From Gammaproteobacteria bacterium (GTDB taxonomy: Bacteria; Pseudomonadota; Gammaproteobacteria; WOZS01): 64,000 nt of DNA. Below, piece after piece: positions 9,331-33,646 of this stretch; within the stretch, counting starts at the first letter, position 1, and the number at the start of each line of letters is the position of its first letter. The notes under the pieces are model-generated. The model saw only the letters and a program-made list of their open reading frames with translations. It had not been told where the DNA came from and did not search any database. Position numbers and translations under genes: made by a program. The stretch is from NCBI GenBank assembly GCA_011620135.1, contig WOZS01000011.1, positions 15,183-79,182 on the forward strand, written 5' to 3'.

Positions 9331-10063
9331 GGCGGGCACACAACCTGCCCCGGTAGCCCGCCTGGAAGGGGTGGGTAAGCGCTATGGCCGCTTAGAGGCG
9401 CTGCACGCCGTTGACCTCGCGTTTTTCCCAGGCGAGGTGGTGGGGTTGCTGGGGCCCAATGGGGCAGGTAAGTCCACCATTCTCGGGCTGCTGGCCGGGC
9501 TGCTCATCCCCAGCAGCGGCGCGGTGCAGGTTCTGAGCCGTACGCCTCGCGAGAGCCGCCACGCCTTGGCCCATCTGCCAGAAGGGCTCCATGGCTGGAT
9601 GACGCCGCGCCATCTGCTGCGGCTCATGGGCGGGCTATACCCCAATTTTTCGGCCCAGCGCTACGCCGAGCTGCTGGACTTTCTGCAGGTTCCAGAAAGG
9701 CGCTCGGCGGCCATGTCCAAGGGCCAGCAGGCACGGTTGCGCCTAGCTGTGACGCTGGCGGTGCAAGCCGAGCTCTATCTGCTGGATGAACCGCTGGCCA
9801 ATATCGACCTGCTGGCCCGGGAGACCATCCTGCAGGCGTTGTTTCGCCACCGCAATGGCAGAGCCTGCTACCTGCTGGCCACCCACGAGATTGCCGAGGC
9901 GGGCAGCTACATGGATCGGGTGGTGATGATCCATGGGGGACGTGTCATCCAGGATCATTCGGTTGCCGAATTGATGCAACAGGGGCTGGGTGTGGAGGAG
10001 GCCTACCGGCAGGCCATGGGGGCGGGGCTGGCCGGCCCCGCCTTGCCCCAGCCCATGCCATGA
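9275..10063 (+). CDS. ABC transporter ATP-binding protein
   Basis: Walker A GPNGAGKST, a degenerate signature MSKGQQ and Walker B LYLLDEP. The annotated ATG overlaps the pntB end by 56 nt, so the true start is uncertain. ATGA-coupled to the downstream permease. Confidence 0.65.
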   Translation: MPMPRKAWVRSLQPSRQGEAGTQPAPVARLEGVGKRYGRLEALHAVDLAFFPGEVVGLLGPNGAGKSTILGLLAGLLIPSSGAVQVLSRTPRESRHALAHLPEGLHGWMTPRHLLRLMGGLYPNFSAQRYAELLDFLQVPERRSAAMSKGQQARLRLAVTLAVQAELYLLDEPLANIDLLARETILQALFRHRNGRACYLLATHEIAEAGSYMDRVVMIHGGRVIQDHSVAELMQQGLGVEEAYRQAMGAGLAGPALPQPMP

Positions 10064-13986: not shown

Positions 13987-14038
13987 ACGCATCAAGCAAG
14001 CAAAGCAATCAAGAACAACTAACAACTAAGGAGCAAGC

Positions 14039-14995
14039 ATGAACATTCCACAAGCGTTCTACGATCTGGCCCAGCAGGAAGACGACTTCCTGGCCGCAGT
14101 CTGGCAGGGATTGGGCAGTACGCCCAAGACCCTGCCGTGTCGCTTTTTCTATGACCAGCGCGGCAGTGCGTTGTTCGATGCCATCTGCGACCTGGATGAG
14201 TACTATCTCACCAGCACCGAGCAAGCCATCCTGCAGGACTGTGCCGCAGACATCGCAAGCCTTGTCGGCCCCACAGGCGTGCTGCTGGAATACGGCAGCG
14301 GCAGCAGCATCAAGACCCGTCTCCTGCTGGATGCACTCTCGCCACGGCTCTACATGCCCATCGACATCTCCAGGGACCACATGCTGGCAGCCTGCGCGGC
14401 TTTGGGTCGGGATTATCCCCATTTGCAGGTGCGCGCGGTATGCGCCGATTATTCCAAACCCTTTGCGCTGCCTGCGGTGGCGTCCTGGGGGCGCACGGTT
14501 GCCTTTTTCCCAGGCTCCAGTATCGGCAATTTTGACCATCGCGAGGCGGTGGCCTTCCTGCGCCAGGTCTGTCGCCAGCTGGGTTCCGGGGATGCCCTTG
14601 TGCTGGGCGTGGACCTGCAGAAGGACCCAGCCATCCTGGAGGCGGCCTACAACGATGCCCAGGGGGTCACTGCTGCGTTCAACCTGAACCTGCTGGCCCG
14701 CATCAACCGCGAGCTTCAGGCGGATTTCGATCTCGACGCCTTCGAGCACCGGGCCTGGTACAACGCTGAGGCAGCAAGGATGGAGATGCATCTTATGAGC
14801 ACCAAGCCCCAGCATGCGACGGTGGCTGGCCGCATGTTTGCCTTCCGACAGGGCGAGACCATTCATACCGAAAACAGCCATAAGTTCAACCACACCCTCA
14901 TCAACCAGCTGGCCTTCCAGGCTGGCTTGCAGGTCCGCATGGTCTGGCGCGACCCCGCTATGCTGTTTGCCGTGTACTGCCTGACCAAGCCCTGA
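14039..14995 (+). CDS. egtD: L-histidine N-alpha-methyltransferase EgtD-like
   Basis: Contains PCRFFYDQRGSALFDAICDLDEYYLTSTEQAIL and LLEYGSGSSIKTRLLL, characteristic of EgtD and its SAM-methyltransferase relatives. Confidence 0.7.
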   Translation: MNIPQAFYDLAQQEDDFLAAVWQGLGSTPKTLPCRFFYDQRGSALFDAICDLDEYYLTSTEQAILQDCAADIASLVGPTGVLLEYGSGSSIKTRLLLDALSPRLYMPIDISRDHMLAACAALGRDYPHLQVRAVCADYSKPFALPAVASWGRTVAFFPGSSIGNFDHREAVAFLRQVCRQLGSGDALVLGVDLQKDPAILEAAYNDAQGVTAAFNLNLLARINRELQADFDLDAFEHRAWYNAEAARMEMHLMSTKPQHATVAGRMFAFRQGETIHTENSHKFNHTLINQLAFQAGLQVRMVWRDPAMLFAVYCLTKP

Positions 14996-16719: not shown

Positions 16720-18258
16720 TCAGAGATCACAGCCACTGTAGGATGCATTGACAGACTTGTTGCATACCGGAAAATCGGCGACAATGTTGCCGCCCACCAG
16801 CACCTCCAGCGCCGGCCAGGCAAACCAGCTTGGGTCCCTGGGAAAGAACCGCGCCACGTTGCCCTGGTCATCCAGGCGCACATGGGTGACGATCTCGCCG
16901 CGAAAGCCCTCCACCACACCCACACCTTCTGCGGCCATACCCGGGGGCCACGGCTCCTGGATGGGCCCTGGCGGGAGGTCATCCAGCAAGGCGTCCAGCA
17001 GCCTGACAGAGGCGCTGATCTCGGCCATGCGCACCTGCAGGCGTGCGGCCACATCGCCGCGTTGCTGCAGGCAGGGCTGGACAGGATGGCGGTCGTAGGG
17101 CGGCTGGGGGCGATCATGGCGCACATCCAATGACAGGCCACTGGCCCGGGCCAGATAGCCGCTCACACCAAGGCCGCGGGCGGCCACGGTGGAAAGCCGG
17201 CCTGTATTGAGCAGCCGATCCTGCAGGGGTGGGTAGTCCGTGAGGATGGGGGCGATATTTTGCCAGCGCTGCAGCATGTCGCGGTGGTTGGCGCGCAACA
17301 GCCTGATGTGCCCTGCATCGAGGTCGACCGCGACACCGCCTGGGGCGATGCAATCCATGAGCAGCCGATGGCCGAAGATGCCGTGCTGGCAACGCAGCCA
17401 TTCTTCCCGGAGCCTGCTGCATTGCATCTTGGCAAAGGCAAAACCCACGTCGCCACAGATGGCGCCCACATCGCCGAGGTGGTTGGCGATACGCTCGCGC
17501 TCGGCCAGGAAGCCGCGCAGCACGACCCCTCGGGCTGTGGGGGCAATGCCCAGGGCGCATTCCAGCGCCAGGGCTGCAGCCCAGCTGTGGGCGACGGTCG
17601 AATCGGCGCTGACGCGACTGGCAAGCGGGAGCAGTGCGGCGGGTTTTCTGCCACAGGCCAGCCATTCGATGCCCTTGTGCACGTAACCCAGGCGTTCCTC
17701 GAGCCCCAGGATGTCTTCGCCTGCCACAGAAAAGCGGAAGTGGCCAGGCTCGATGATGCCGGCATGCACCGGCCCCACGGGAATCTCATAGACACCTTCG
17801 CCACTGAAGGTGGCAAAGGGATAGCGGTCCCGGCCCCGCTCCTGTGGCGTCACAGGGGTGCGCAGGGGTGCTTCGTCGGCCTTCCAGGCGCCATGACGCG
17901 TCCATGGTGGATTGCACTCGCCAAAACGCACCCCCCACAGGTCATGGGCGTGGCGTTGCATCCTGTCTGCCGCCGGATACCAGCGCGCCCAGGAAGGCAG
18001 CCCCATCGTGCCATCAAGAGGCGTGGCGCGCAGCAGGACATACCAGCCATCCCGGGCGAGGCAGGCGTTGACCTCCAGCTTCTCGTCTCGCACATCGGCC
18101 CACAGGCCGGCGAAACGCAGCTGCCGCACGCTGGCTTCTGGAGCCAGCTGTGCCCAGTGTTCCGGGGCCACCGTCACAAGCAGTATCCGATCCTGAAGCA
18201 TCCGCGAAGACGTGCCCCATGCGCTCAGTTCCTGCAGCCAAGCTGGTGAGTTGTTCAT
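16720..18258 (-). CDS. fused NuoC/NuoD-like large subunit (HyfG/HycE-like) lacking the NiFe-binding CxxC
   Basis: 512 aa from the ATG at 18258, ATGA-coupled to the upstream gene. The L1 site reads AICGDVGFAF, whereas real group-4 hydrogenases have RxCGxCxxxH. The C-terminus lacks DPCxxCxxH. Confidence 0.75.
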   Translation of the reverse strand: MNNSPAWLQELSAWGTSSRMLQDRILLVTVAPEHWAQLAPEASVRQLRFAGLWADVRDEKLEVNACLARDGWYVLLRATPLDGTMGLPSWARWYPAADRMQRHAHDLWGVRFGECNPPWTRHGAWKADEAPLRTPVTPQERGRDRYPFATFSGEGVYEIPVGPVHAGIIEPGHFRFSVAGEDILGLEERLGYVHKGIEWLACGRKPAALLPLASRVSADSTVAHSWAAALALECALGIAPTARGVVLRGFLAERERIANHLGDVGAICGDVGFAFAKMQCSRLREEWLRCQHGIFGHRLLMDCIAPGGVAVDLDAGHIRLLRANHRDMLQRWQNIAPILTDYPPLQDRLLNTGRLSTVAARGLGVSGYLARASGLSLDVRHDRPQPPYDRHPVQPCLQQRGDVAARLQVRMAEISASVRLLDALLDDLPPGPIQEPWPPGMAAEGVGVVEGFRGEIVTHVRLDDQGNVARFFPRDPSWFAWPALEVLVGGNIVADFPVCNKSVNASYSGCDL

Positions 18259-19700
18259 GGCAGCGGGATGCTGATCCGGATGGCCGCATTCTGCAGCACA
18301 TGGAGGATGGGTGGCGGCATGAGCAGGCCCAGGATGACCACCAGGCCCAGCTGGAGCCATGAGGGCCACAGGGCGATGGTCTCCTTGGTTTGCATGGTCG
18401 TCGCAGCAGGCGCCTCGCCCAGGACCATGGGCTGAACCTGGCGCAGCAGGGCGGCAAAGGCAATCACCATGCAAAGCGCCAGCGACGCCGCAAGCCAGGG
18501 CTGATGGGCGGCAGCGCTGGTCAGGATGAGCAACTCGCTCACGAAAAGACCAAACGGTGGCAATCCAGCCATGGCGGCGGCTGCAGCCATGAAGGCCCAG
18601 CCCAGACGGGGGTCGAGGTGCAGCAGGCCGCGTATCCGCTCCGTGGAACGGCTGCCCGCTTTCCTGGTGACGGCCCCCACGATGATGAACAACGCCGCCT
18701 TACCCAGGCCATGGCACAAGAGATGCAGCAAGGCGGCGAAGGTGGCAAGCGGTGTACCCAGGCCCAGGGCGAAGGTGGCAATCCCCATGTGCTCGATGGA
18801 GGAATAGCCAAAAAGGCGCTTGATGTCCCGTTGCCGCAGCAACAGCAAGGCGGCCAGCAGTGTGGAGGCGAGGCCGAAGGCCAGCAACAGCATGTTCGGG
18901 ATATCGTGGCTGGCGGAGGTGGCCAGGGCCGCATCAGTGAGCATCTTGATGCGCAGCAGGGCATAGAGCGCCACATTGAGCAGCGTGCCCGAGAGCATGG
19001 CGAGCAGCGGGGCAATGGCCGCCGAATAGGCATCGGGCAGCCATTGGTGTAGCGGCACCAGGCCCGCCTTGGTGCCATAGCCTACCAGACAGAAGACGAA
19101 GGCTATGCCCATCACGGTGGGATCGAGATGGCTGGCTGCCGCATGGAGCGCTGGCCAGTTCATGGCCTGCTGCGGGTCATCCAGGGCTTGGTGGGCGGCA
19201 AAGGCCACCAGCACGGTGCCGAACAGCGCCTGGGCAATGCCCACGCCACATAACACGAAATACTTCCAGGCCGCCTCCACCGCCTGGGGAGTGCGGTTGA
19301 AGGCCACCAGCAGCACGGTGGCCAGCGTGGCTCCTTCCAGCGCCACCCACAGGATGCCGATGTTGCTGCAGGCCAGCGCCAGCTGCATGGTGCACGAAAA
19401 GGCCTGGAACAAGGGATAGAACAGGGCCGCACCACCCTTGCCGGCCGGCTCCAGGAAGTAGGGGCAGGACAGCGCCACGGTGAGGGTGATGAACCCTGTG
19501 GTCAGCAGAAAAGGCTTATTGATGGCATCCAGCATGAGTACTGTGCCGGCATGCGCCGGACCCAGCACAGCCAGGAGGGCGGCGATACAAGCCAGTGCAC
19601 TCGCCCAGAGGTTGATCTGCGCCTGATGCTGGCGATGGAAGGCCAGCAGGATGGCCGCTGCACCCGGGATCAGCACAGCAAGCCACAGGCTCATGGCCAT
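18255..19700 (-). CDS. NuoN/NuoM (HyfF/MrpD)-like antiporter-type membrane subunit
   Basis: 481 aa polytopic. Contains the conserved GLVPLHQWLPDAY motif and a FGYSSIEHMG block typical of complex I N/M subunits. Confidence 0.75.
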   Translation of the reverse strand: MAMSLWLAVLIPGAAAILLAFHRQHQAQINLWASALACIAALLAVLGPAHAGTVLMLDAINKPFLLTTGFITLTVALSCPYFLEPAGKGGAALFYPLFQAFSCTMQLALACSNIGILWVALEGATLATVLLVAFNRTPQAVEAAWKYFVLCGVGIAQALFGTVLVAFAAHQALDDPQQAMNWPALHAAASHLDPTVMGIAFVFCLVGYGTKAGLVPLHQWLPDAYSAAIAPLLAMLSGTLLNVALYALLRIKMLTDAALATSASHDIPNMLLLAFGLASTLLAALLLLRQRDIKRLFGYSSIEHMGIATFALGLGTPLATFAALLHLLCHGLGKAALFIIVGAVTRKAGSRSTERIRGLLHLDPRLGWAFMAAAAAMAGLPPFGLFVSELLILTSAAAHQPWLAASLALCMVIAFAALLRQVQPMVLGEAPAATTMQTKETIALWPSWLQLGLVVILGLLMPPPILHVLQNAAIRISIPLP

Positions 19701-20383
19701 TGTTTCTCCACAACGCCGCTTTCCTCGGTCAAGGCGCTCAGGCGATCCACATCCATGGAGTCGATGTTTTCCCGGATGTGCAGGAAAAAGATGCCAAAGA
19801 GCACCATGGCCAACAGCACATCAAAGGCAATGCCCAGCTCCACCACCAGCGGCATGCCTCCTGTGGCCGCCACGGCAGCGAGAAACAGGCCATTTTCCAT
19901 GGCCATGAACCCCACCACCTGTGCCATGGCCTGGTGGCGCACCACCATCATCAAAAGACCCAGCAGCACCACGGCGAGACTGACCATGATCACGCTGCCA
20001 TGGATAGACGAGGCCATCTGCGCAAGTGGCAGCACCACCCAGTAGCTGAACACCACCAGTGCAGCACCTGAAAAGAGGACGAGTCCCTGGTGGTCGAGCA
20101 CCTCAGCGCTGCGGTGCAACGCGAGGCGGTCCAGCTGCCGGTCCAGCATCCATGGGATGCACAGCCCCTTGAGGGCGAAGGTGAGCAGCGCCGAGACCAG
20201 CAACTCGCCACGGCCATCCACGATGCCGCGCAGCAAGGCCACCAGGGCCACACACATTCCTTGGATGGCACAGGCATAGATGACCGGCACAAGACGCGTC
20301 TGGCTCAGCAGCACGAACGAGGTGAGCAGCACCAAGCCCGCCAGGAAGGCCACGCCCTGCTCGGCAAGCGGCATACTGGTCAT
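19691..20383 (-). CDS. HyfE-like (NuoK-related) membrane subunit
   Basis: 230 aa, hydrophobic. C-terminal NuoK-like helix GFMAMENGLFLAA. Confidence 0.65.
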   Translation of the reverse strand: MTSMPLAEQGVAFLAGLVLLTSFVLLSQTRLVPVIYACAIQGMCVALVALLRGIVDGRGELLVSALLTFALKGLCIPWMLDRQLDRLALHRSAEVLDHQGLVLFSGAALVVFSYWVVLPLAQMASSIHGSVIMVSLAVVLLGLLMMVVRHQAMAQVVGFMAMENGLFLAAVAATGGMPLVVELGIAFDVLLAMVLFGIFFLHIRENIDSMDVDRLSALTEESGVVEKQWP

Positions 20384-21348
20384 GGATTGTGTTCCAGGAT
20401 GACATGGCTGAATAAGCCAAGCACCGCCAGCAGGAAGGCCAGGTTGAGCATGCCCGGGGCGCGAAACAGGCGCATCTTGGGCAGCAGTGCTTCGGTCAGG
20501 GCCAGCACCACGCCCAGGGCTGCCAGTTTGCCCATCAGGCAGAGCAATGCCAGGGCCAGCATGGCTGGGCTGGCATGGTCGGCCAGCCCCCAGGGGGCAA
20601 ACAGATCAGCCAGCAGGATGCCGTAGAACAAAAGTTTCATGTGGCCGCTCCATTCCACCAGCGCCAGGTGGCGGCCGCTCCACTCCAGCACCATGGCCTC
20701 ATGCACCATGGTGAGCTCGAGATGAGTGGTGGTGTTGTCGGCGGGCAGGCGGCCATTTTCCACGCCGGCCACCATCAAAAGGGCCAGCAGTGTGAACAGG
20801 AACGAGGGCCGCAGCATCATTCCGGTATCCAGCAGATGGCCCACCAGGACCGCAAGATTGCTGCTGTGGGCGGTCATGGCGAGACTGAACAGGCCAAGCA
20901 GCAGCGTGGGTTCGGCCAGGGCGCTCAGCATCAGCTCCCGGCTTGCACCCAGTCCCCCGAAGGCCGTGCCCGGGTCCAGGGAGCCGATCATCAAGGCCAC
21001 GCGCGCCAGGGTCAGGAAGCCTGTCAGCACCAGGACATCCGTGACGCTGGCCAGCGGTGTTTGCACGGTGAGCATGGGCAAGGCCGAGGAAGCCAGCAGC
21101 GTGGCGGCGAACATCACATAGGGGGCCATGCGAAACAGCCATGAGGCGGTATGGGGCACCACCGGTTCCTTGGCGAACAGGCGGCGCAGGTTGCGCCATG
21201 GCTGCAGGGGCGAAGGGCCACGGCGGTTCTGCAGCCGGGCACGCAGCATGTCCACCCAGCCATTGAGCAGCGGTGCCGCCAGGGCGAATAGCAGGATCTG
21301 CAGCGGCAGCATGGCCCACTCCAGGGCGTTCACCAGGACATCACCCAC
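20380..21348 (-). CDS. NuoH (HyfC/HycD)-like membrane subunit
   Basis: 322 aa. The N-terminal region RLQNRRGPSPLQPWRNLRRLFAKEPVVP is NuoH-like. Confidence 0.75.
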   Translation of the reverse strand: MGDVLVNALEWAMLPLQILLFALAAPLLNGWVDMLRARLQNRRGPSPLQPWRNLRRLFAKEPVVPHTASWLFRMAPYVMFAATLLASSALPMLTVQTPLASVTDVLVLTGFLTLARVALMIGSLDPGTAFGGLGASRELMLSALAEPTLLLGLFSLAMTAHSSNLAVLVGHLLDTGMMLRPSFLFTLLALLMVAGVENGRLPADNTTTHLELTMVHEAMVLEWSGRHLALVEWSGHMKLLFYGILLADLFAPWGLADHASPAMLALALLCLMGKLAALGVVLALTEALLPKMRLFRAPGMLNLAFLLAVLGLFSHVILEHNP

Positions 21349-23357
21349 AGCAGGACCAGCAATGTGCCCAGTGAAAAACCCAGGTACAGTCGCACCCGTC
21401 CCGACTGTAGACGGGCTGCGTGGCGCGAGAGGGACATGACAAACCGGGCCACCGGGGCATAGAGCAAGTCCCAGGTGCGATCAGCGATCTCCAGATGATA
21501 GCGCCGCCCCTGGGGGCTGCCGAGACGCTCATGGATCGACAGCAATCCGGCAAAGACCTGGCGCAGCGGCATAGCCAGGGCTGCAGGCGTGATCTGCATG
21601 CGTGCCGTGGGCGGCCCCAGTCCGCAGGCCCAGGGCTGGACCCGCCTGAGCGCGGCGCGTTTTCTGGTGTGCAACAGGGCGGCTGTACACAGGGCAATGA
21701 TCATGATCACGGCAAGGACCGCCAGCGGTGCATAGCTGGCCTGGGTTGCCGTCACAGGAGTGATGATCAGTGCCGAGGCCGTCTGCACGGCAGGGTGGTG
21801 CAGCAATGCCACTGTGACCTGGTTCAGCATCATGAGCAGCAGACCGGGAAACAGGCCGGAGAGCACACACAACGCGGCCAGCATACCCTGGGCAAGCAGC
21901 ATGGCGCGCGGCGCTTCCCTGGCGCGCCGCGCCGGGCGGCTGCGGGCCTGGCCCAGGAAGGCGCTGGCAAAGAGCCGCAGCAGGCAGGCCGTGCCCAGGG
22001 CCGTGGTCAGCGCAAGGCAGGCGGCGGCAAGCGGGATGAGGCTGCGCAGGATACCCTGCTCCATCTGCCAGGACTGCAGCGCTGCCTGGAAGAGCAGCCA
22101 CTCCGAGGCAAAGCCATTGAGCGGCGGGATGGCAGCCAGGCCCAGGCAACCCAGCAGGAACAGACCGCCGCTGGCGGGCATGCGTCGCAGCAACCCGCCC
22201 ATGCGCCCCAGGTCGTAGGTGTCGCAGGCCTGTTGGATGGTGCCAGCACCCAGGAACAAGAGCGCCTTGAGCAGGGCGTGGTTGAGCACATGCAGCAGGG
22301 CAGCTCCCAGGGCCATGGCGGCCAGCATGGCATGTCCAGTGGTGCGGTAGAGCAAGGCGAGCCCCAGGGCCATGGTGACAAGCCCCAGATTCTCGATGGA
22401 AGAACAGGCCAGCACCCGCTTGATGTCCTGCTGCACCAGCGCCAGCACCACGCCCAGCACCATGGAAAGGGCTCCTGTGGTGATCATGGTCACGGCAAGC
22501 CCAAGGGCCGATTGCACAGACACCAGGTCGAAGCACAAGCGCACCATGCCGTAGATGGCTATCTTGAGCATCACAGCAGACATCAAGGCCGAGATGTGCG
22601 ATGGGGCCGCTGGATGGGCCAGCGGTAGCCAGACATGCAGTGGGACAAGCCCTGCTTTGGCGGCGAAGGCAAGACAGGCGAGCGCCAGGGCCGCCATGGC
22701 GCTCGCTGAGGCAGGAGCCGCACGCCATTGAGCAAAATCAGGCCCGCCTGCCCCATGCGCCAAAAGGCCAAAGGCCAGCAGCAGGACAAGGGCTCCCATA
22801 TGGGCCACCAGCAGGTAGATCAATCCGGCCTGCCGGCTGGCACTCTCCTCATGGTGTTGGATCACCAGCAGGTACGAGGCAAGCGCCATGCCCTCCCAGC
22901 CCAGCATGAAAGGGAAGGCGTGAGCGGCAAGCAGCACCAGGATCATGCTGGCCACGAAAAAACCCGTGGCCACCCCCGGGCGCCTGAAGCCTGTCTCTAT
23001 ATGGAGCAGGTAGGGTCTGGCATAGAGGGCGATGGTGCTCACAACCGCGCCCAGCGGCAGCAGGAAGACGGCACTCAGTGGATCCAGGATCAGGTGCCAT
23101 GGAATGACGCCAAGGGTCATCACGACGGCATCGCTGGGGCCACCCAGCAGCAACCACAGTCCGGCGGCCAGACTGCACAGCCCGCTTGCCCCCAGGAGTT
23201 GCAGCGCGAGCCGTTCCCAGGAGCGCGGGCCTGCGGCACTCAATCCGGCGGCCATGGCAAGCCCCATGGCCAGCATGGCGAGTCCAAGGGGTGTCATGCC
23301 AAGGTATGCATCATTTTTCAAGGTACCCAGCCAGAATGGCGCTAGCCAGAATAGCAT
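21330..23357 (-). CDS. NuoL (HyfB/HycC/MrpA)-like antiporter-type membrane subunit
   Basis: 675 aa. Motifs WEGMALASYLLV, GLVPLHVWLPLAHPAAPSHISALM and SSIENLG. A likely internal start is at MTPLGLAML. Confidence 0.75.
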   Translation of the reverse strand: MLFWLAPFWLGTLKNDAYLGMTPLGLAMLAMGLAMAAGLSAAGPRSWERLALQLLGASGLCSLAAGLWLLLGGPSDAVVMTLGVIPWHLILDPLSAVFLLPLGAVVSTIALYARPYLLHIETGFRRPGVATGFFVASMILVLLAAHAFPFMLGWEGMALASYLLVIQHHEESASRQAGLIYLLVAHMGALVLLLAFGLLAHGAGGPDFAQWRAAPASASAMAALALACLAFAAKAGLVPLHVWLPLAHPAAPSHISALMSAVMLKIAIYGMVRLCFDLVSVQSALGLAVTMITTGALSMVLGVVLALVQQDIKRVLACSSIENLGLVTMALGLALLYRTTGHAMLAAMALGAALLHVLNHALLKALLFLGAGTIQQACDTYDLGRMGGLLRRMPASGGLFLLGCLGLAAIPPLNGFASEWLLFQAALQSWQMEQGILRSLIPLAAACLALTTALGTACLLRLFASAFLGQARSRPARRAREAPRAMLLAQGMLAALCVLSGLFPGLLLMMLNQVTVALLHHPAVQTASALIITPVTATQASYAPLAVLAVIMIIALCTAALLHTRKRAALRRVQPWACGLGPPTARMQITPAALAMPLRQVFAGLLSIHERLGSPQGRRYHLEIADRTWDLLYAPVARFVMSLSRHAARLQSGRVRLYLGFSLGTLLVLLWVMSW

Positions 23358-23408
23358 ATTCCATGCATAAGGAAGGGTGCTCCAGACAAATGAGGGGTAT
23401 TTTCAGGG

Positions 23409-25223
23409 CTATTTGGTCAGGTTGGTGTTCAATAACAACAAGTCACAGCGCTGGCCGAGCCCCTTGAGCAGTTTGGTGTCGGTTTCCGGTGAGCGGGCGC
23501 CGAGGCAGAGGCTGGACTGGGCAAGACGGGCTGCCTTGCTCGAGGCAAACCGCAGTGTGAGCCGAAAGCCGCTTGCGGCCATGCCCGGATCGTTCAGCGC
23601 CATGGCCACATCGGTGCGCTTGACAACCATGGCCTCGATTGTGCTGGGCGGCTCCGGGGCAAGCAGGACCAATAGTCTGTCTTGCTCAGAATCGTGAAGT
23701 GGCAGATAGCCTGTAATGCTGAGCGTGTCATCTTGTAGCAACATGGTTTCCACCTGGCCGCCAAGGCCATTGCTGAGGGTGCCAGGGTACTGTTCTGGCA
23801 TGCCGGTGAAGACCAATGTCTTGAACGACATGCTGGCAGGTGGCAGGGTGACAAGCCCCAGCGGAGCGATGCGGTGGCTGATCAGCAGGCTTTGAGCATA
23901 GGCGTTGTAGATGCGCAGCCGGAAGGCTTCCTGGATCTCGGCCAGGGCCTGTACGGGGTAGCGAAACAGCAGGCCGCCTGGGTCTCCCGAGGCAAACCGT
24001 GTTGCTCCATCCACAAGTGCTGCGTGTCGCGCCCTGGCCAGGGGCAGGTTGACTGTCCATGAGAACAGGCAGAAGCCCAGCGCCAGCAGCACGGCCAGCA
24101 ATTGCGGGAGTGGCCGTAGTAAAACAATCCGCCAGCGGACACACAGTCCAAGCCAGACCACGGCCCCCAGCAGCGCGCTGTAGAAGGCATAGCGCGGGGA
24201 CAGGGCCTGCTCCAGGCCGAGCGTGCCGCGCCCGGCTGCGGTCATGGCCGCGGTCAGAAGCCCGAAGAGGATGAAGGCGGGGAACGGGGTGCATGGCTCG
24301 CGGGCCCTTGGTGATGAAGGCAGGCATGCCATCAAGCCCAGCGCCAGCACCACCACACCCCATGCCCAGGCTATCCTTTGTTGGCTGAAGATCGCCCCGC
24401 AAAACAGCGCGACGTAGCCCAGGAACTGGCCGGGATGGCGCAACGTGGCCTCAGGGGAGCTGGCTTCCGGCGGCGTGAAGTAGCCTTGGAAAAACCACCA
24501 CCACAACAGCAGGGTGATCAGCGCTCCTGCCATGAAGGTCATGCCTCTGCGGATGTGCAAGACGGTGAGGAGCACGGGCACGAAAAGCCCGTTGGCCTGC
24601 GAGCCCACCGCCAGCGCCGCCAGCAGGTAGGCCGGGATGAGATGGCCCCGGGCCGAGCACAGCAGCGCGGCGAGACCAAGCAGCATCACCTGGTAGTTGG
24701 ACAGCGCCGCCATGGCCCACAGCGCACTCTCCCAGGCGGCGGGCTGGAACAGCAGCAAGGCACAGGGCAGCAGCGCCAGGAGTTTCCTGTTGGCTGAAAA
24801 CATGGGCGGCAGCGCTTTGTAGAGCACCAGCAGCACTGCAGGCAAGGCGGCGTTGCCCAGCAGCGTGAGCCGTTGCAGGTTGACGGCCCCAAAAAGCCCC
24901 CAGTCGGCCAGGGCGACAAGTCTTGTCAGCACGATGCGATGGTTGCTGTTCTGGTGAATCAGCCAGTGGTAGGCCTCATGGAGGTTTTGGGCCTTGGCGA
25001 GGCGCGCCAGCGAGCCCAGGATGGCGCCAAAGTCGTCCATGATGGGGAAGTTGACGCTCAAGTTCAGGATGAAGACGAGATAGGCGGCCATGGGCAAGAG
25101 CAGCGCAGCCCAAAGCATGGCTGACTTGCCGGCCTCGCCTAGCTTTGGATGCCAGATGACCACAGGAATATCGGTATCAGATCTCGCATGGCCTCTTGAC
25201 CCAGCTTGGTGGATAGCGGGCAT
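23409..25223 (-). CDS. polytopic membrane protein, candidate GT-C family glycosyltransferase (arabinofuranosyltransferase-like)
   Basis: 604 aa. About 400 aa with 10 or more predicted TM helices, then a roughly 200-aa soluble C-terminal domain. A DD motif (FPIMDDFG) follows TM1, as in GT-C enzymes. A probable start is at MLWAALLL (25121). Lies 51 nt upstream of the Ehr cluster and downstream of the DPA-like genes. Confidence 0.45.
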   Translation of the reverse strand: MPAIHQAGSRGHARSDTDIPVVIWHPKLGEAGKSAMLWAALLLPMAAYLVFILNLSVNFPIMDDFGAILGSLARLAKAQNLHEAYHWLIHQNSNHRIVLTRLVALADWGLFGAVNLQRLTLLGNAALPAVLLVLYKALPPMFSANRKLLALLPCALLLFQPAAWESALWAMAALSNYQVMLLGLAALLCSARGHLIPAYLLAALAVGSQANGLFVPVLLTVLHIRRGMTFMAGALITLLLWWWFFQGYFTPPEASSPEATLRHPGQFLGYVALFCGAIFSQQRIAWAWGVVVLALGLMACLPSSPRAREPCTPFPAFILFGLLTAAMTAAGRGTLGLEQALSPRYAFYSALLGAVVWLGLCVRWRIVLLRPLPQLLAVLLALGFCLFSWTVNLPLARARHAALVDGATRFASGDPGGLLFRYPVQALAEIQEAFRLRIYNAYAQSLLISHRIAPLGLVTLPPASMSFKTLVFTGMPEQYPGTLSNGLGGQVETMLLQDDTLSITGYLPLHDSEQDRLLVLLAPEPPSTIEAMVVKRTDVAMALNDPGMAASGFRLTLRFASSKAARLAQSSLCLGARSPETDTKLLKGLGQRCDLLLLNTNLTK

Positions 25224-25379
25224 GTCTTGCGGCTCGAGGGCAACAAACCTTGGTCATGGTACCATGCCGGCATGCCGTTTTCCGTGCGTCCGGCCCAGCG
25301 GTCCAGGAAACCGGCCATGCCCTCTGCTGTGGCCGAGCAGTCGTACCTGTTGCCCTGGCCGGAGAGTCGAGGCTCGTGC

Positions 25380-27188
<1,809 letters not shown>

Positions 27189-27239
27189 AAGGATGTATCG
27201 AACAGATTGAAGAAAAGAAAGAAAAGAACATTGAATAGA

Positions 27240-27998
27240 CTACAGACGCAGGCGAATGAACAAAGGTTCCGGGATGGCGCGCACCACCAGCATGATCCAG
27301 CGCCAGAACCACGGGGCATAGACCACCCCGCCCCGGCGGCCGGCCATGGCTTGCGCGATGGCACGACCCACCTGCTCTGGCTGAGCCCACAGCGCATTCT
27401 TGCTGAGGTCTTTTGTCATGGGCGAGTCCACGAAACCGGGCTTGACCGTGACCACCCTGACTCCCTTGGCCTGGAGCTGGTTGCGCAAGCCGGAGAGAAA
27501 GGCCGCAAGACCCGCCTTGGCGGCGCCATAGACATAGTTGGACTGCCGGCCCCGGTCGCCCGCCACAGAGGAGATGCCCACCAGAACGCCATGACCCTGG
27601 CTTGCCATGTGGTTGGCGGCCAGCTGCAGGATCGTGCAGGCACTGAGCAGGTTGGTCTCCAGCGCCTGGCGCAATGCCTTCATGTCGCTCTGGCACCTGG
27701 CCTGGTCGGGCAGGTCGCCATAGGCCAGGATGAGGCCATCGAGGCCGCCCAGGTGTGCGAGGGCGGCATCCAGCATGGCCTGGTGCATGGTCCAATCGCT
27801 GCAATCCATGATGTACGTTCCGGGCTCATGACTGCTGCGCAGCGCAAGGTCGGCTGCCACCAGGGCAAGGCGTTCCTTGTTGCGGGCCACGAGAAAGAAA
27901 CGGGCGTCCTGCTGGGCGAGGATTCTTGCCGTAGCCTCTGCGATGGCCGATGTGGCCCCGACGATCACGATACGCTTCACGCGCTCACCCGGCGCCAC
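27240..27998 (-). CDS. short-chain dehydrogenase/reductase, DprE2-like (decaprenylphospho-2-keto-ribose reductase-like)
   Basis: Rossmann motif GATSAIAEATAR and a YGAAKAGL catalytic Tyr/Lys. About 252 aa like Rv3791. Immediately downstream of a DprE1-like gene. Confidence 0.65.
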   Translation of the reverse strand: MAPGERVKRIVIVGATSAIAEATARILAQQDARFFLVARNKERLALVAADLALRSSHEPGTYIMDCSDWTMHQAMLDAALAHLGGLDGLILAYGDLPDQARCQSDMKALRQALETNLLSACTILQLAANHMASQGHGVLVGISSVAGDRGRQSNYVYGAAKAGLAAFLSGLRNQLQAKGVRVVTVKPGFVDSPMTKDLSKNALWAQPEQVGRAIAQAMAGRRGGVVYAPWFWRWIMLVVRAIPEPLFIRLRL

Positions 27999-29281
27999 AG
28001 GCTCGAGGAGATGGCGGGGTCACGCCGTGCGGCAAGCTCCGCCCATCGGGGGTAGGCGGCCTGGAATTGTTCCTTGGTCATCAGGGCATCCTTGGCGGGA
28101 TAGATGGCCCCGCCTGCTTCATGGATCAGGGTATAGAAGGCGCGCAAGGCGGCGATGGTCTGCGAGCCCTGGTGAGGCACATCCAGGGCCAGCGTTACCC
28201 CGGGCCTGGGGAAAGAGAGCCAACCGGGCGAGGCGCGCTCGCCGAACACCTTGAGCACCGCCAGGAATGAACCCATGCCCTGGGTAGCACAGCGTTCCAG
28301 CAGTTCATGGATGACGAAGGTGGCATGACCATGGGGCAGCACGCACTGCAACTGCAGGAAGCCCCTGGGCCCATAAAGCCGGTTCCAATGGGCTATATGA
28401 TCCAACGGATAGAAAAAACCCTTGTAATGGGCAAGGCGTGTGGTGGGCCGCAGCCGCTTCCAGTGGTAGTAGAGCGCATTGAAGGCGCGGATGCGCCGTG
28501 CCCCCACCGCGGGGAAGGGCAGTTCCCAGGGGATGGCCGCCTGCCAGCGTATGCCGGATGAACCCTTGGCCAGGGGTGGGGCATGATTGGCGCGCCACAG
28601 GATGCCCCGGCCCCTGGAGCGGGCCGGGGCAAGGCAATCCACCCAGGCGACCGTATAGTCGAAATCGCGGTCCGAGGCCGAACTCAGGGCAAAGAACTCC
28701 TCGAGGCTCCCAAAGGGGTGTTCCTCGACCACCATGAAGGGATTGGCCACGCGCAAAAGCTGGATGTCGACCCAGCCGACCCAGCCGGTGAGCCCCAGGC
28801 CGGCCACGGTGGCGCCGAACCAGCCATCCTTTTGCTGTGGCGTGCAGAGCATGGGCCGCCTGTCGGAACGCCACAGCTTGAAGCGCAGCACATGGCAGCC
28901 GAAGGTGCCGGCGGCATGATGGTTTTTGCCATGGACATCGTTGGCGATGGCCCCCCCCACCGTCACGAGCCTGGTGCCCGGTGTCACCGGCAGGAAAAAC
29001 CCTTGCGGCAGGGCAAAATCGATGATCTCCTCCAGCGTGGTGCCCGCCTCGCAGCGCAGCACGCCACTTTTGGCATCGAAGGCCAGCAGCCGGTTGCAGG
29101 GCCTGCCCAGCAGCAGTGTGCCGCTTTCGTTGAGACAGCAGTCCCCATAGCTGCACCCATTGCCCCGGGGCAATGCGCTGCTGTCGTCCGTGCCCAAGGC
29201 GGCCTCATGGTGGAAGGATACCCTCCGTCCTGATTGCTGGTGCACCGGCGGGTAGCGGCCGAACGATGGCAACCTGTTCAT
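27977..29281 (-). CDS. FAD-dependent oxidoreductase, DprE1-like
   Basis: FAD_binding_4 region with GGAIANDVHGKNHH. Start ATG at 29281 (MNRLPSFG) shares one nucleotide with the upstream stop (TGATG). Confidence 0.65.
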   Translation of the reverse strand: MNRLPSFGRYPPVHQQSGRRVSFHHEAALGTDDSSALPRGNGCSYGDCCLNESGTLLLGRPCNRLLAFDAKSGVLRCEAGTTLEEIIDFALPQGFFLPVTPGTRLVTVGGAIANDVHGKNHHAAGTFGCHVLRFKLWRSDRRPMLCTPQQKDGWFGATVAGLGLTGWVGWVDIQLLRVANPFMVVEEHPFGSLEEFFALSSASDRDFDYTVAWVDCLAPARSRGRGILWRANHAPPLAKGSSGIRWQAAIPWELPFPAVGARRIRAFNALYYHWKRLRPTTRLAHYKGFFYPLDHIAHWNRLYGPRGFLQLQCVLPHGHATFVIHELLERCATQGMGSFLAVLKVFGERASPGWLSFPRPGVTLALDVPHQGSQTIAALRAFYTLIHEAGGAIYPAKDALMTKEQFQAAYPRWAELAARRDPAISSSLWRRVSA

Positions 29282-30735
29282 CAGATGGCCAGCCAGAGGA
29301 TCAGCAGCGTGGCGCAGGCAATGAGCTGGCTGGTCCTGTCCTGGATGGCAAAGACCACAGGATCGTCGTGCATCTGGCCGCGATGAGCCAACAGCCACGC
29401 CCGGCTGATCCAGTACAGCAGCAGCGGGCAGAGCAACCACACCAGCGCGGGATGGCTGTACAGAGCCAGGATGTCCGGGCTATCGATGTAGAGCGCCAGG
29501 ACCAGCACGGCCATGTAGCCTGCGGCACAGCCCAGGCTGGGGAGCAACGCGAGGTCGGCCACCGCATAGCCCCGACCCATGAGGCTTTGGCGCCCTTCGG
29601 TCTGCATCACCAGGAGCTCGGTGTAGCGCTTGAGCAGCGCGAGGCTCAGGAACACGAAGATGGAAAAGGCCAGCAACCAGGAAGATACCGCGATGCTTCC
29701 CGCCGCGGCCCCTGCTGCCAGACGGATGGTGTAGAGCCCGGCCAAGACCAGCACATCCAGCAGGACGATGCCTTTCAGGATCCAGGAATAGAGCAGCGTG
29801 GTGGCGTAGTAGCCCAGCAGAACCAGCACGAAAGGCCAGGGCAGGGTCATGAGGCCCAGGAGCACGGCACCAGCGAACAAGGCAGGAATCCACAGCAGCG
29901 CCTCGCGCAGCCCCATGGCCCCGCTGGCCAGCGGCCGCAGGCGTTTCCGCGGATGGTGGCGATCTGCTTCCAGGTCCAGGAGATCGTTGAGCAGATAGGC
30001 ACTGGATGCGGCCATGGACATGGCCAGCATGGCCAGCAGCCCGGAACCGAACAGCTCGCTCCACTGGTGGCCCAGCGTGAAGGGCACCAGCACCAGGACG
30101 TTTTTTACCCACTGGTGCGCCCGCAAGGCCTTGAGGCGGATTTTCCAGCTGGGGGGTGGATCGCGCAGGATGGCGCTTATCTCGGCGATATTCTGGGCGG
30201 CGCGTACCAAAGCAGGCGTCGGATTGATCAGGATGGATTTCCGGGCTGCCTTGAAGATGGGTAGATCCACCATGGCATCGCCCACATAATCGAAGCCCTT
30301 GATACCGAAGCGGCTCGCCAGGGCAGCGGCCTTGTGGAAGCCCTTGAGATTCGCGTCCTGGTCTGTGGCCACCACGGCATCGAACAGGCCGAGATGATCG
30401 GCGATGGCCTGGGCATGGCCGATATGGCTGGCCGTGGCCAGGACCAGCGTGCGTCCCTGGGCTTTCTGCTGGCGCAGCCAATCGAGAAGTTGCTCGTTGT
30501 AGGGGAGGGCCGCAGGATCGATGGCCACGAAGCGGGCAAGCTGGTTTTTGAGGGCCACCCGGCCGCGATGCCCCCAGAGCGGCAGACGCCACAGCTGTCC
30601 TGGGTGCTTCCTGGCCAGCAGGCAGATGGATTCAAAGGTGATATCGCTGCGGATCAGTGTGCCATCCAGGTCCACGCACAGGGGCACGTCCCCCGCAGGA
30701 AAACTGTTCTGCTGCTGTGCCGTTTCACTGGTCAT
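29281..30735 (-). CDS. HAD-family phosphatase fused to UbiA-family polyprenyl-phosphate 5-phosphoribosyltransferase (DPPR-synthase-like)
   Basis: N-terminus has HAD motif I (CVDLDGTLIRSD) and a KGFDYVGDAMVDLPIF motif III region. C-terminus has 8-9 TM helices with NDLLDLEADRHHPRKRLRPLASG, the DPPR-synthase-type UbiA signature. Confidence 0.65.
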   Translation of the reverse strand: MTSETAQQQNSFPAGDVPLCVDLDGTLIRSDITFESICLLARKHPGQLWRLPLWGHRGRVALKNQLARFVAIDPAALPYNEQLLDWLRQQKAQGRTLVLATASHIGHAQAIADHLGLFDAVVATDQDANLKGFHKAAALASRFGIKGFDYVGDAMVDLPIFKAARKSILINPTPALVRAAQNIAEISAILRDPPPSWKIRLKALRAHQWVKNVLVLVPFTLGHQWSELFGSGLLAMLAMSMAASSAYLLNDLLDLEADRHHPRKRLRPLASGAMGLREALLWIPALFAGAVLLGLMTLPWPFVLVLLGYYATTLLYSWILKGIVLLDVLVLAGLYTIRLAAGAAAGSIAVSSWLLAFSIFVFLSLALLKRYTELLVMQTEGRQSLMGRGYAVADLALLPSLGCAAGYMAVLVLALYIDSPDILALYSHPALVWLLCPLLLYWISRAWLLAHRGQMHDDPVVFAIQDRTSQLIACATLLILWLAI

Positions 30736-30738
30736 GAT

Positions 30739-31770
30739 TCACGTCTGTTGTGCACGGCGGTACTGGAAAAGATAGGCAAGGCAACACAGGGCTCCAACGG
30801 CCACGCCAAACCACAAGGTGGCCAGGCGACTCACCAGGGTCACTCCCATGGCCTGCCCGCTGCCCAGGCCAATCGCCCCCAAGAGTAGCACCATGGCCCC
30901 CTCGGCGCCACCCACCCCGCCAGGGATCATGGAGATGGCCCCAGCCAGGAGACCTGCGGCATAGATGCCGACCACAAGCCCAGGCGTGGTGCCCTGGTGG
31001 ACGGCATCTACCAGCAGGTAGAAGCCCCAGCCCTCGGCAGCCCAGGCCACCAGGCCCGTCAGCAGGCCCATACCCAGCAAGGAGGGCGTGACAAGCCGCC
31101 AGGCGCGCAGCACAGCACCGATGGCGGTTTGTGCCAGGCGCACCACCAGGCCCCTGCGGCCCTCCAGACGCTTGCCCAGTGCCGCAAGCCACACCGGCTG
31201 TAGGCTCAAGGCGAACAGCAGGCAGCCAGCGGCGGCACCAAAGAGCAGCATGCCTTGCCCCGCACCCAGGAGAGAAAGGCACAGCAGAGCCAGCAGCAGC
31301 ACGGCCGCCAGGTCACAGAGCCTTTCCATGACCAGAACACCCAAGCTGTCCTCGAGCCGCACGCCGTGGGATAACAGCCACCAGGAGCGCACCGCCTCGC
31401 CGCTCTTGCCGGGCGTGGTGGTGAAGGCATATCCGGCAAGATAGATCAGCAATGAGGTGCCCAGGGTGGGGCGGGAGCCCAGCTGGCCGAGGAACACATG
31501 CCAGCGCACAAAGCGCAGCAGATAATTGAGCACCGAACAGCCCAGGACCCAAACCAGCAGTCTGCCATTCAGGCTGGCCAGTGCGCCGTGCAGGCTGTGT
31601 GCCGCGAGCAGGCCATAGAGTACGATGGCGGCAACAAAGATGACCGCGCTGCTATGGATGGCGCTGCGCAGGACCCGGCCGAAAGGCGGCGTGGTTTGCT
31701 GGTTCATGGCCGCAGCAGCCTGCCGGGGGGCAGGGGCATCATGAGGTTGTCCATGGTTCTGATCATTCAT
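30739..31770 (-). CDS. YbhN/LPG-synthase-TM (UPF0104) family membrane protein, putative flippase-like
   Basis: 343 aa polytopic, Gly/Leu-rich TM helices. ATGA-coupled to smpB upstream. First gene of the DPA-like block. Confidence 0.5.
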
Positions 31771-32249
31771 GCCTGACGCTGCAGCCGGGCTTTCTGGCGC
31801 ATCCAGTCGCGCTCCTTGGTCGCCTGACGCTTGTCGTAGAGCTTTTTCCCCTTGGCGAGACCAAAGGACAGCTTGACGCGTTGCTCGCTATAGTGCAGGT
31901 CCAAAGCCACCAGGGTATAGCCGCGTCGCTCCACCATACCCAGGAGCCGCCTGAGTTCCTTGCGGTGCAGCAGGAGTTTCCTGGTGCGCCGCGGATCGGG
32001 CTCGATGTGCGTCGAGGCGCTGGGCAGCGGGGTGATGAGTCCGCCCAGCAAAAAGGCTTCCCCATGGCGCAATACCACGTAGGCGTCGCGCAACTGGACC
32101 CGGCCAGCCCGGATGGCCTTGACCTCCCAGCCCAGGAGCACGAGACCGGCCTCGAAGCGCTCCTCGATGGAGTAATCATGGAACGCCTTGCGATTGCTGA
32201 TGATGGTTGAGTCGGTCACGGCAGGAGCGCGGTTCCATGCTTTTCTCAA
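31767..32249 (-). CDS. smpB: SsrA-binding protein SmpB
   Basis: Aligns with E. coli SmpB from the N-terminus ([30 protein letters not shown]). Confidence 0.85.
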
Positions 32250-32275
32250 GGGAGAGAATGCAATATACTAGCACA

Positions 32276-32728
32276 ATGCCTGTGATTTGCCAGAGTGAGT
32301 GCCTGGCGGCGGAGCCTGGGGTGGTCTTCGAGATCATCGCCACGGTGGATCGCTATCCTGACTTCGTGCCCTGGTGTACCGGGGCCTGGCAGGAAACCCT
32401 GGCTCCCAATCAGACCCTGGCCACCATCGAGGTAGCAGCCGGACCCTTTCATGAACGGCTGACCACCAGGAACATGCTCGAGTCACCCCGTGCCATTACC
32501 ATGGAACTGGTGAGCGGTCCTTTTCGTCACCTGCATGGCATCTGGCAGTTGGCTCCCTGCGAGGAAGGCACGGTGGTCACCTTGAGGCTTGATTTCACCT
32601 TGCGTAACCGCCTGCTGGCCATGGCGGTCAGTCGCTCCATGGACCGGGTATCCAGCCGTCTGATCGCCGCTTTCCGCCAGCGGGTGGAAGAGGCTGTGGT
32701 GCAAAAAAGCCAGGCGGCAGGCCGCTAG
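32276..32728 (+). CDS. ratA: SRPBCC-family ribosome-association protein RatA/YfjG-like
   Basis: START/Bet-v1-like; YPDFVPWCTGA matches RatA YPQFLPGCTGS. Divergent from smpB as in E. coli. Start chosen at MPVICQ. Confidence 0.7.
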   Translation: MPVICQSECLAAEPGVVFEIIATVDRYPDFVPWCTGAWQETLAPNQTLATIEVAAGPFHERLTTRNMLESPRAITMELVSGPFRHLHGIWQLAPCEEGTVVTLRLDFTLRNRLLAMAVSRSMDRVSSRLIAAFRQRVEEAVVQKSQAAGR

Positions 32729-32735
32729 CGGCGGA

Positions 32736-33041
32736 TCACCCGTTCTGGGGGTCGTGTTCCACCCGAACCATCTGCTCGCCGACGAAGTGTACCACCAGTC
32801 GTTTTTCCTGCCTTTTTTTACCCTGTTTTTCCAGATAATACACATAGCGCCACGTATCACTGTCAAAGGGCGTATTGGCCAGGGGTGGACCCAGCAGATA
32901 GCGCACCTGCTCCTTGGTGAGGCCGGGGCGCAGCTGCATGGTTTTGTCTGGTTCCATGATATTGCCTTGCTGGATGTCCATGCGATAGGCGCAGCCTGCC
33001 AGGAGCGCCAGCAGCGTAGTGAGGATCAAAAGCGTTTTCAT
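32736..33041 (-). CDS. bamE: outer membrane protein assembly factor BamE (SmpA/OmlA lipoprotein)
   Basis: Lipobox MKTLLILTTLLALLAGC followed by a SmpA_OmlA domain. Confidence 0.75.
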   Translation of the reverse strand: MKTLLILTTLLALLAGCAYRMDIQQGNIMEPDKTMQLRPGLTKEQVRYLLGPPLANTPFDSDTWRYVYYLEKQGKKRQEKRLVVHFVGEQMVRVEHDPQNG

Positions 33042-33193
33042 GTGTGTCACAGCCATTTCAAGTTAATATGAAGTCTGATGGAAGACGAGTCCTGGCCGAG
33101 GATGCCGCAAGGGCATTATAACCGCCTCGGGGTATTCTTGCAGTATGGTGCATGGCATGCAGGACTTGCTTGCTTGAAAACCGGAGGATACAC

Positions 33194-33646
33194 ATGGCTC
33201 CTGGAGAATTGCGCCGCGCCGGTCTGAAGGTCACCATCCCTCGCTTGCGCATCCTGGAACTGCTGGAGCACGGCCAGGGGCGGCACATGAGTGCCGAGGA
33301 GGTCTATCATGACCTGCATGCCGGTGGTGAGGACATCGGCCTGGCCACGGTCTATCGGGTGCTGACCCAATTCGAACAGGTCGGGTTGGTCAAAAGGCAT
33401 TATTTTGAAGGCGCCAGCGCGGTCTTCGAGTTGAACCAGGGTCCCCACCATGACCACATGGTATGTATACATTGTGGCCGGGTTGATGAGTTCATGGATG
33501 CCACCATCGAGGAGCAGCAGCGCCAGGTCGCCCAGCGTCTGGGCTATGCGATGACAGGTCACAGCCTGCACATCTATGGCATCTGCACCAACTGCAAAGC
33601 CAAAGACAAAGAAGACATGTCGCCAAAAACACTGGATGACTCCTGA
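33194..33646 (+). CDS. fur: ferric uptake regulator
   Basis: Motifs GLKVTIPRLRILELL, LATVYRVL, HHDHMVCIHCG and CxxC. 150 aa. Confidence 0.85.
   Translation: MAPGELRRAGLKVTIPRLRILELLEHGQGRHMSAEEVYHDLHAGGEDIGLATVYRVLTQFEQVGLVKRHYFEGASAVFELNQGPHHDHMVCIHCGRVDEFMDATIEEQQRQVAQRLGYAMTGHSLHIYGICTNCKAKDKEDMSPKTLDDS

Follow-up and report, generated by a model that had tools for sequence, protein, structure and literature searches.

Within the 64,000-nucleotide stretch of a gammaproteobacterial genome analysed here (the window; contig WOZS01000011.1, positions 15,183 to 79,182), the minus-strand gene at 29281..30735 encodes one protein that joins an N-terminal HAD phosphatase domain to a C-terminal UbiA-fold membrane domain. 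As judged from sequence and by analogy with a homologue studied biochemically, this fusion gene is probably a bifunctional polyprenyl-phosphoribofuranose synthase, acting in a pathway to polyprenyl-phosphate-D-arabinofuranose (polyprenyl-P-D-Araf). Its synthase and phosphatase steps are backed by strong homology and by published biochemistry on the homologue, and the subsequent epimerisation would follow from specific homology and a conserved gene order.

The HAD-UbiA fusion and its characterised homologue

The fusion gene is a single unbroken frame of 484 aa with an ATG start. Pfam mapping located HAD (PF12710, aa 62-161, also PF00702) ahead of UbiA (PF01040, aa 227-458), bearing out the sequence-only reading, which had seen the HAD motif DLDGTL (aa 22-27) N-terminal to UbiA in one polypeptide. 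In an alignment of 121 sequences, i.e. the fusion protein and its 120 best homologues, most of them ~50% identical, the four HAD motifs were invariant: D22 and D24 of motif I, T101 of motif II, K135 of motif III and D157 of motif IV (G152-x-x-x-x-D157) were each 100% conserved, and so the HAD catalytic Asp pair is in place. As to motif IV, aa 153 (codon 30277-30279) is Asp in the fusion protein and its closest relatives (G-D-xxx-D) and Asn in 98% of the family (G-N-xxx-D). Within the UbiA domain N250, D251, D254, D258, R259, K369, R370 and E373 were likewise invariant, making up N250-D251-xx-D254-xxx-D258-R259 and K369-R370-xx-E373, the NDxxDxxxD and RxxE motifs.

The C-terminal ~290 residues (aa 192-478) aligned end to end with residues 8-293 of the Mycobacterium tuberculosis phosphoribosyltransferase (PRTase) Rv3806c in a phmmer search against PDB (8J8J, E 2.3e-25). 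The AlphaFold2 model, for which 61 sequences were aligned, was confident, with a predicted local distance difference test score (pLDDT) of 92.2 and a predicted template-modelling score (pTM) of 0.87; Foldseek against PDB placed 8J8J (8j8j_A) at the top for the membrane part (TM-score 0.83 normalised to target, 29% identity), and archaeal and aromatic UbiA enzymes ranked below it (TM-score ~0.7, 17% identity). Rv3806c (8J8J) is therefore the closest solved relative of the UbiA-fold domain, in keeping with the earlier description of that domain as similar to decaprenylphosphoryl-5-phosphoribose (DPPR) synthase. The N-terminal domain matched HAD-IB proteins and phosphoserine phosphatases (SerB). 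Against the mycobacterial DPPR synthase equivalog models (NF008976-8) the fusion protein scored 107-137 bits, with a best score of 136.9 below the cut-off of 207, and it departs from the single-domain, ~300-aa form by the extra 190-aa HAD domain; on these features it is to be classed as a homologue, not an orthologue, of Rv3806c.

The same architecture recurs widely. To the curated model NCBIfam NF006088 (PRK08238), whose cut-off is 351 bits, the fusion protein scored 614.3 bits in an alignment spanning positions 5-480 of the 482 in the profile, and a word-indexed search with the protein gave 7,930 homologues at E<=1e-5. Of the 120 homologues listed, nearly all had 473-514 aa and both PF12710 and PF01040; they came from Burkholderia, Acidithiobacillus, Rubrivivax, Acidobacteriota, Verrucomicrobia and others, and GTDB species genomes, when scanned, contributed further homologues in Xanthomonas, Stenotrophomonas, Pseudomonas, Mesorhizobium, Nitrospira and Bacteroidota, the best species match being 51% identical. 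Matches were also found in 102 plasmid records, 36 of them from Rhizobium. The phage collection gave a single partial PRTase match; with the fusion-protein query it did not yield the phage system that Kelly et al. mention. The HAD domain was kept in all 82 homologous loci examined. By these comparisons the fusion is a conserved architecture and a member of a curated, widespread and biochemically characterised family.

The biochemical precedent is ORF15 of C. youngae O1, described by Kelly, Duong, Nothof, Lowary and Whitfield (PNAS 2024, PMC11127046) as an N-terminal HAD 'phosphoribose phosphatase' with a C-terminal Rv3806c-like PRTase. Membranes containing ORF15 converted phosphoribosyl pyrophosphate (PRPP) and farnesyl-P to farnesyl-P-ribofuranose (farnesyl-P-Ribf); the D18A variant gave mainly the 5-phosphate product, with a little dephosphorylated farnesyl-P-Ribf still detected and some side-chain still formed in vivo; and Ala in the N247/D248/D251/D255 motif abolished activity in vitro and abolished or severely reduced it in vivo (PMC11127046). 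The same authors explicitly contrast ORF15 with the separate, unrelated mycobacterial phosphatase Rv3807c. Residue spacing is alike in the two proteins, D18 of ORF15 corresponding to D22 of the window protein, N247, D248, D251 and D255 to N250, D251, D254 and D258, and R366 and E369 to R370 and E373. A Rhizobium sp. CCGE531 protein, from a locus that Kelly et al. list in their supplementary information as an ORF15 homologue (NZ_CP032687.1), scored 609 bits to NF006088 and shared 36% identity with the window fusion over aa 17-484.

The sequence-only reading had suggested that both steps would lie in one protein and that HAD would replace Rv3807c non-orthologously. With the same domain order and motif spacing as ORF15, for which this was shown, the proposal is supported by analogy for the window protein. 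What did not stand is the implied novelty, since the fusion idea is already published (Kelly et al. 2024, PMC11127046) and the family already curated (NF006088); the fusion itself, characterised in 2024, settles no open question. Its practical use lies in annotation: the fusion gene and its homologues are currently labelled 'UbiA family prenyltransferase' or, wrongly, '4-hydroxybenzoate polyprenyltransferase/phosphoserine phosphatase', and can be read as bifunctional polyprenyl-P-ribofuranose synthases.

DprE1/DprE2-like partners and the predicted pathway

The fusion gene stands third in a tightly packed run of genes, all on the minus strand, whose transcription order is smpB, a PF03706 flippase-like gene, the fusion gene, a DprE1-like gene, a DprE2-like gene, typA and a 604-aa membrane protein. 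The fusion stop and the DprE1-like start overlap (TGATG), and the fusion gene is, by this layout, evidently translationally coupled to the DprE1- and DprE2-like genes; a start for the longer, 487-aa DprE1-like open reading frame (ORF) is unlikely compared with the ATG at 29281. Against PDB sequences the DprE1-like protein matched DprE1 at E 8e-62, with the next family at 3.6e-5, and its equivalent of the catalytic Lys418 is conserved; the DprE2-like protein matched DprE2 (21gq_C) at E 9e-30, with the next short-chain dehydrogenase/reductase (SDR) at 7e-19. The best NCBIfam match of the former was DprE1 NF053785 (302 bits, below the cut-off of 500), and the latter gave 299 bits to PRK07102 and 186 bits to DprE2 NF053786, below the cut-off of 250. 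Position 365 of the DprE1-like protein, at the place of M. tuberculosis DprE1 Cys387, is Ala. Cys387 is the residue covalently modified by benzothiazinones, and the DprE1-like oxidase is therefore predicted to be naturally insensitive to them.

Among the 82 homologous loci surveyed for neighbours, 72 had enough downstream flank and 72 enough upstream flank. A DprE1-like gene immediately followed the fusion gene in 50 of 72, and DprE1- and DprE2-like genes together in 47 of 72. The pair was absent from 14 of the 53 full-length loci, and GtrA-like genes were found in 26 of those 53. Acidithiobacillus ferrivorans and Burkholderia vietnamiensis have, in this order, fusion, DprE1, DprE2, (GtrA) and a large membrane protein without a Pfam match. 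The B. vietnamiensis one, a 508-aa protein following fusion-DprE1-DprE2-GtrA (L003, 13909-15435), matched the NCBIfam AftB model weakly, over its N-terminal 80 residues (E 3.6e-10); AftB is the mycobacterial terminal beta-(1->2)-arabinofuranosyltransferase. Two symbiotic or large rhizobial plasmids, pRCCGE531b of Rhizobium sp. CCGE531 (L089) and pNGR234a of S. fredii NGR234 (L090), carry the same fusion gene with other partners. These are two oxidoreductases, one NAD(P)-dependent and one of the GMC type, together with an NAD-dependent epimerase, an SMR transporter and a hypothetical membrane protein of 658 aa; such a set implies a different pentose product there.

The window operon sits in the core genome, overlapping smpB, and not in a polysaccharide cluster. 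Its close relatives (88-92% identity) keep the smpB ... typA arrangement. The smpB stop and the flippase-like start overlap (ATGA, 31767-31770), as they do in the relatives L005 and L006. It follows that smpB, a housekeeping trans-translation gene, and the predicted arabinose-donor operon are apparently transcribed together. A scan for promoters and terminators over 23000-33200 gave background level, and the Rfam and tRNA scans gave nothing but a tRNA-His far from the locus.

On this evidence, we propose a six-step route. The PRTase domain would first join PRPP to undecaprenyl-P (undP; the presumed lipid in an organism of Gram-negative type) to give undP-Rib-5-P, as homology and the conserved motifs suggest. 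The HAD domain, which is attached directly where the first membrane helix starts on the cytoplasmic side and would do the job of mycobacterial Rv3807c, would then remove the 5'-phosphate with D22 as nucleophile and yield polyprenyl-P-beta-D-ribofuranose. From homology and gene order, the DprE1-like protein would oxidise undP-Ribf to the 2'-keto intermediate, and the DprE2-like protein would reduce this with C2' inverted, giving undP-D-Araf. With less confidence, the adjacent MprF-flippase-like protein may move the donor to the periplasmic leaflet, and the GT-C-like protein beyond typA may transfer Araf to an envelope glycan or protein. Undecaprenyl-P-D-arabinofuranose is the likely product because the fusion gene is coupled to DprE1/DprE2-like genes, an arrangement found in 47 of the 72 loci, and with such neighbours the locus predicts D-arabinofuranose on some envelope glycan of this uncultured-type bacterium.

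The alternative that survives best, though we consider it unlikely, is that the end product is another lipid-linked pentose, Ribf being used directly or another epimer being made, with the oxidase/SDR pair not epimerising at C2'. About a quarter of the full-length loci have no DprE1/E2 pair, as noted above; other loci, e.g. that of Rhizobium CCGE531, use different oxidoreductases or epimerases; C. youngae O2 makes xylofuranose (Xylf) via an SDR epimerase (PMC11127046); and the two window homologues score below their NCBIfam equivalog cut-offs. Set against this, both neighbours match DprE1 and DprE2 far above other solved proteins, the DprE1 catalytic Lys is conserved, and DprE1/E2 homologues are reported specifically in systems making Araf-containing glycans (PMC11127046).

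A somewhat smaller chance is given to the view that the PRTase works as proposed while HAD is not a dedicated 5'-phosphatase, serving instead a regulatory or structural function or another phospho-substrate, with a housekeeping phosphatase carrying out the dephosphorylation. That this step can be partly bypassed is indicated by the residual farnesyl-P-Ribf and side-chain of ORF15 D18A, and deletion of noeN, a putative phosphatase gene, in Rhizobium sp. IRBG74 lowered Nod-factor arabinosylation and did not abolish it. The shift of the D18A product to the 5-phosphate form, the invariance of all four HAD motifs among homologues at ~50% identity and the retention of the domain in every one of the 82 loci argue the other way, that is, for HAD as the phosphatase of the bifunctional synthase.

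We regard as very improbable the reading in some source annotations, by which an aromatic prenyltransferase is joined to a phosphoserine phosphatase: JGI names on homologues, the general UbiA Pfam match and the HAD fold matches to SerB would agree with it, whereas the 4-hydroxybenzoate polyprenyltransferase model TIGR01474 gave 21.1 bits against a cut-off of 275, far from the DPPR synthase scores, the nearest structure is the PRTase Rv3806c and the operon partners are DprE1/E2-like. Those model scores and structural neighbours led us to reject it. That two separate genes were wrongly joined in assembly or annotation, through a frameshift or missed stop, has a negligible chance, as no supporting point was found, the frame is intact, the curated model matches end to end, and thousands of homologues from many phyla, in complete genomes too, share the architecture; the doubt raised on this score with the sequence-only reading is thereby settled.

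Candidate flippase, candidate transferase and other features of the window

The gene directly upstream of the fusion gene, its stop 3 nt from the fusion start, encodes a stand-alone member of the PplT/MprF flippase family. What has been considered for this domain family (PF03706) is the translocation of phospholipids (Hauser et al., bioRxiv 2022, 10.1101/2022.03.11.483950), and no description of a role with polyprenyl-P-pentoses was found for it. In 10 of the 72 species loci the gene immediately upstream of the fusion gene is of the PF03706 type; these loci are spread over alpha-, beta- and gammaproteobacteria and include Aquabacterium, Stenotrophomonas, Xanthomonas albilineans, Mesorhizobium, Pseudomonadales and Burkholderiales. 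A PplT-HAD-UbiA triple fusion was sought as Rosetta-stone evidence and rejected, the genes being separate, though adjacent or overlapping, in 10 of 10 loci. The published three-component scheme for pentofuranoses consists of a synthase, a MATE or SMR transporter and a GT-C enzyme (PMC11127046). Neither a MATE nor an SMR/GtrA transporter accompanies the fusion gene here, where the PF03706 flippase-like gene holds the adjacent position: tblastn with GtrA and SMR proteins from three homologous loci found no GtrA/SMR transporter in the 64-kb window. The PplT-like protein had no match among PDB sequences.

Beyond typA lies a polytopic ORF of 604 aa (23409..25223), probably starting at M36 (25118). 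It had no Pfam or NCBIfam match, and no Pfam domain was present in 51 of 51 relatives tested; 1,720 relatives occurred in the representative library, and a profile-seeded word search for more added almost nothing. Conservation is complete at P25 and D28 (with D29), which closely follow the first transmembrane helix (TM1), and at H60, R297 and R309-Y310. In the AlphaFold2 model (pLDDT 88.8) TM1 is followed by a small helical region, the membrane body consists of many helices, and the C-terminal domain is beta-rich. All Foldseek matches with probability >=0.95 were GT-C enzymes (ArnT, yeast and human STT3, AftD), with weak scores (best E 2.6e-3, TM-score ~0.3). In a search with a family profile, 7 other species had a member immediately next to a fusion-DprE1-DprE2 operon, i.e. 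Variovorax, Duganella, Luteibacter, an Oxalobacteraceae strain, Methylococcaceae and two other proteobacterial metagenome-assembled genomes; two distant members had uninformative contexts, one on a short contig and one in an unrelated neighbourhood. The position of typA between the DprE2-like and candidate GT-C genes is kept in the 92%-identical relative L005. The C-terminal domain of the family (~23409-23900) matched residues 189-289 of an N-acetylmuramoyl-L-alanine amidase (8c4d_A, E 1.2e-4), which suggests a glycan-binding module like the carbohydrate-binding module (CBM) of C. youngae ORF12.

Two leads, not findings, come from these genes: a transporter candidate of the MprF-flippase type, compared with MATE and SMR alone in the published survey, may be new, and so may the GT-C-like family, which has no Pfam or NCBIfam model. 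Taken further, a tentative and rather doubtful reading would make the PplT-like protein an undecaprenyl-P-Araf flippase here and in at least 10 other proteobacterial species, as a third transporter class, and the 570-aa protein the founder of an uncatalogued GT-C arabinofuranosyltransferase family with a glycan-binding module. In the same reading, the overlap with smpB and the operon's place in the core genome would mean that a conserved envelope component, not a variable O-antigen, is decorated constitutively.

Several points weigh against the proposed pathway as a whole. The PRTase, DprE1 and DprE2 parts all fall below the mycobacterial equivalog cut-offs (137/207, 302/500 and 186/250 bits) and are thus to be taken as relatives, not strict orthologues, which is why the sugar product is a prediction. 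The link between the fusion protein and ORF15 (AWU66546.1) runs via motif spacing and the listed homologue from NZ_CP032687.1. At the export end, a flippase role of the PplT-like protein is without experimental precedent for polyprenyl-P-sugars, the GT-C assignment of the modelled membrane protein depends on weak Foldseek scores, and typA separates its gene from the operon.

Table 1. Features of the locus (positions in the window)
Feature	Coordinates	Strand	Remarks
smpB	31767..32249	-	
MprF-flippase-like (PplT / LPG_synthase_TM) membrane protein	30739..31770	-	PF03706 E 2.7e-40, TIGR00374 'flippase-like domain'; candidate lipid-linked-pentose flippase
Fusion protein, N-terminal cytoplasmic HAD-IB domain (aa 1-190)	30166..30735	-	Predicted polyprenyl-P-ribose-5-phosphate 5'-phosphatase ('PRP'); from Pfam, motifs and Foldseek, function by analogy with the ORF15 D18A data
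Fusion protein, C-terminal UbiA-fold membrane domain (aa 191-484 and stop)	29281..30165	-	Predicted PRPP:polyprenyl-phosphate 5-phosphoribosyltransferase (PPPRS); from phmmer, Foldseek, invariant residues and NF006088
DprE1-like FAD-dependent oxidase	27977..29281	-	434 aa from ATG at 29281; predicted polyprenyl-P-ribose 2'-oxidase
DprE2-like short-chain dehydrogenase	27240..27998	-	Predicted 2'-keto reductase giving polyprenyl-P-arabinofuranose
typA/bipA, translational GTPase	25380..27188	-	Between the DprE2-like and candidate GT-C genes
Candidate GT-C glycosyltransferase with C-terminal beta-rich domain	23409..25118	-	569 aa from M36; predicted periplasmic arabinofuranosyltransferase

Elsewhere in the window, immediately downstream of the GT-C-like gene, a minus-strand run at 16720-23357 contains Proton_antipo_M, NADHdh and Complex1 49/30-kDa genes, which resembles a membrane complex of the hydrogenase-4 / formate hydrogenlyase or Mrp-like kind. 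Adjacent plus-strand genes at 12712-14995, EgtB-like (FGE-sulfatase and DinB_2) and EgtD-like (Methyltransf_33), suggest ergothioneine biosynthesis. A 539-aa Trp/Leu-rich polytopic membrane ORF without a Pfam match lies at 10060-11679 on the plus strand, in the stretch of the window where GC is highest (0.68) and the AT skew is strong (-0.38).

Comparison with known systems

The mycobacterial pathway (Rv3806c, Rv3807c, DprE1, DprE2 and Rv3789) has the same predicted chemistry as the window system, and the PRTase, DprE1 and DprE2 are clear homologues. The two differ in that the phosphatase in the window is a fused HAD domain and not the separate, unrelated Rv3807c, that the lipid is presumably undecaprenyl instead of decaprenyl, and that the candidate flippase belongs to another family. 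Older Gram-negative examples of DprE1, DprE2 and PRTase homologues making a lipid-linked D-Araf donor are the rhizobial noeCHOP and noeN genes (Nod factor) and the pilin genes of P. aeruginosa PA7/Pa5196; in both the rhizobial and the P. aeruginosa systems the dephosphorylating enzyme is described as a protein of its own, and the acceptors, Nod factor and pilin, are known.

The ORF15 system, nearest in the design of its synthase, builds Ribf (O1) or Xylf (O2) side chains, and its O-antigen cluster also encodes a MATE transporter and a GT-C enzyme of family GT136. In contrast, the window system lies between the housekeeping genes smpB and typA, and its partners are DprE1/E2-like proteins, an MprF-flippase-like one and a GT-C-like one that is unclassified. 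The layout of the candidate GT-C protein and its D / H / R-Y pattern recall the GT136 enzyme ORF12 of C. youngae (D31, H106, R349-Y350 and a C-terminal CBM), which is a resemblance and not a test. To the published picture the window thus adds only the recurrent pairing with an MprF-flippase-like gene and the unclassified GT-C-like family, both as leads on who flips and who transfers lipid-linked pentofuranoses.

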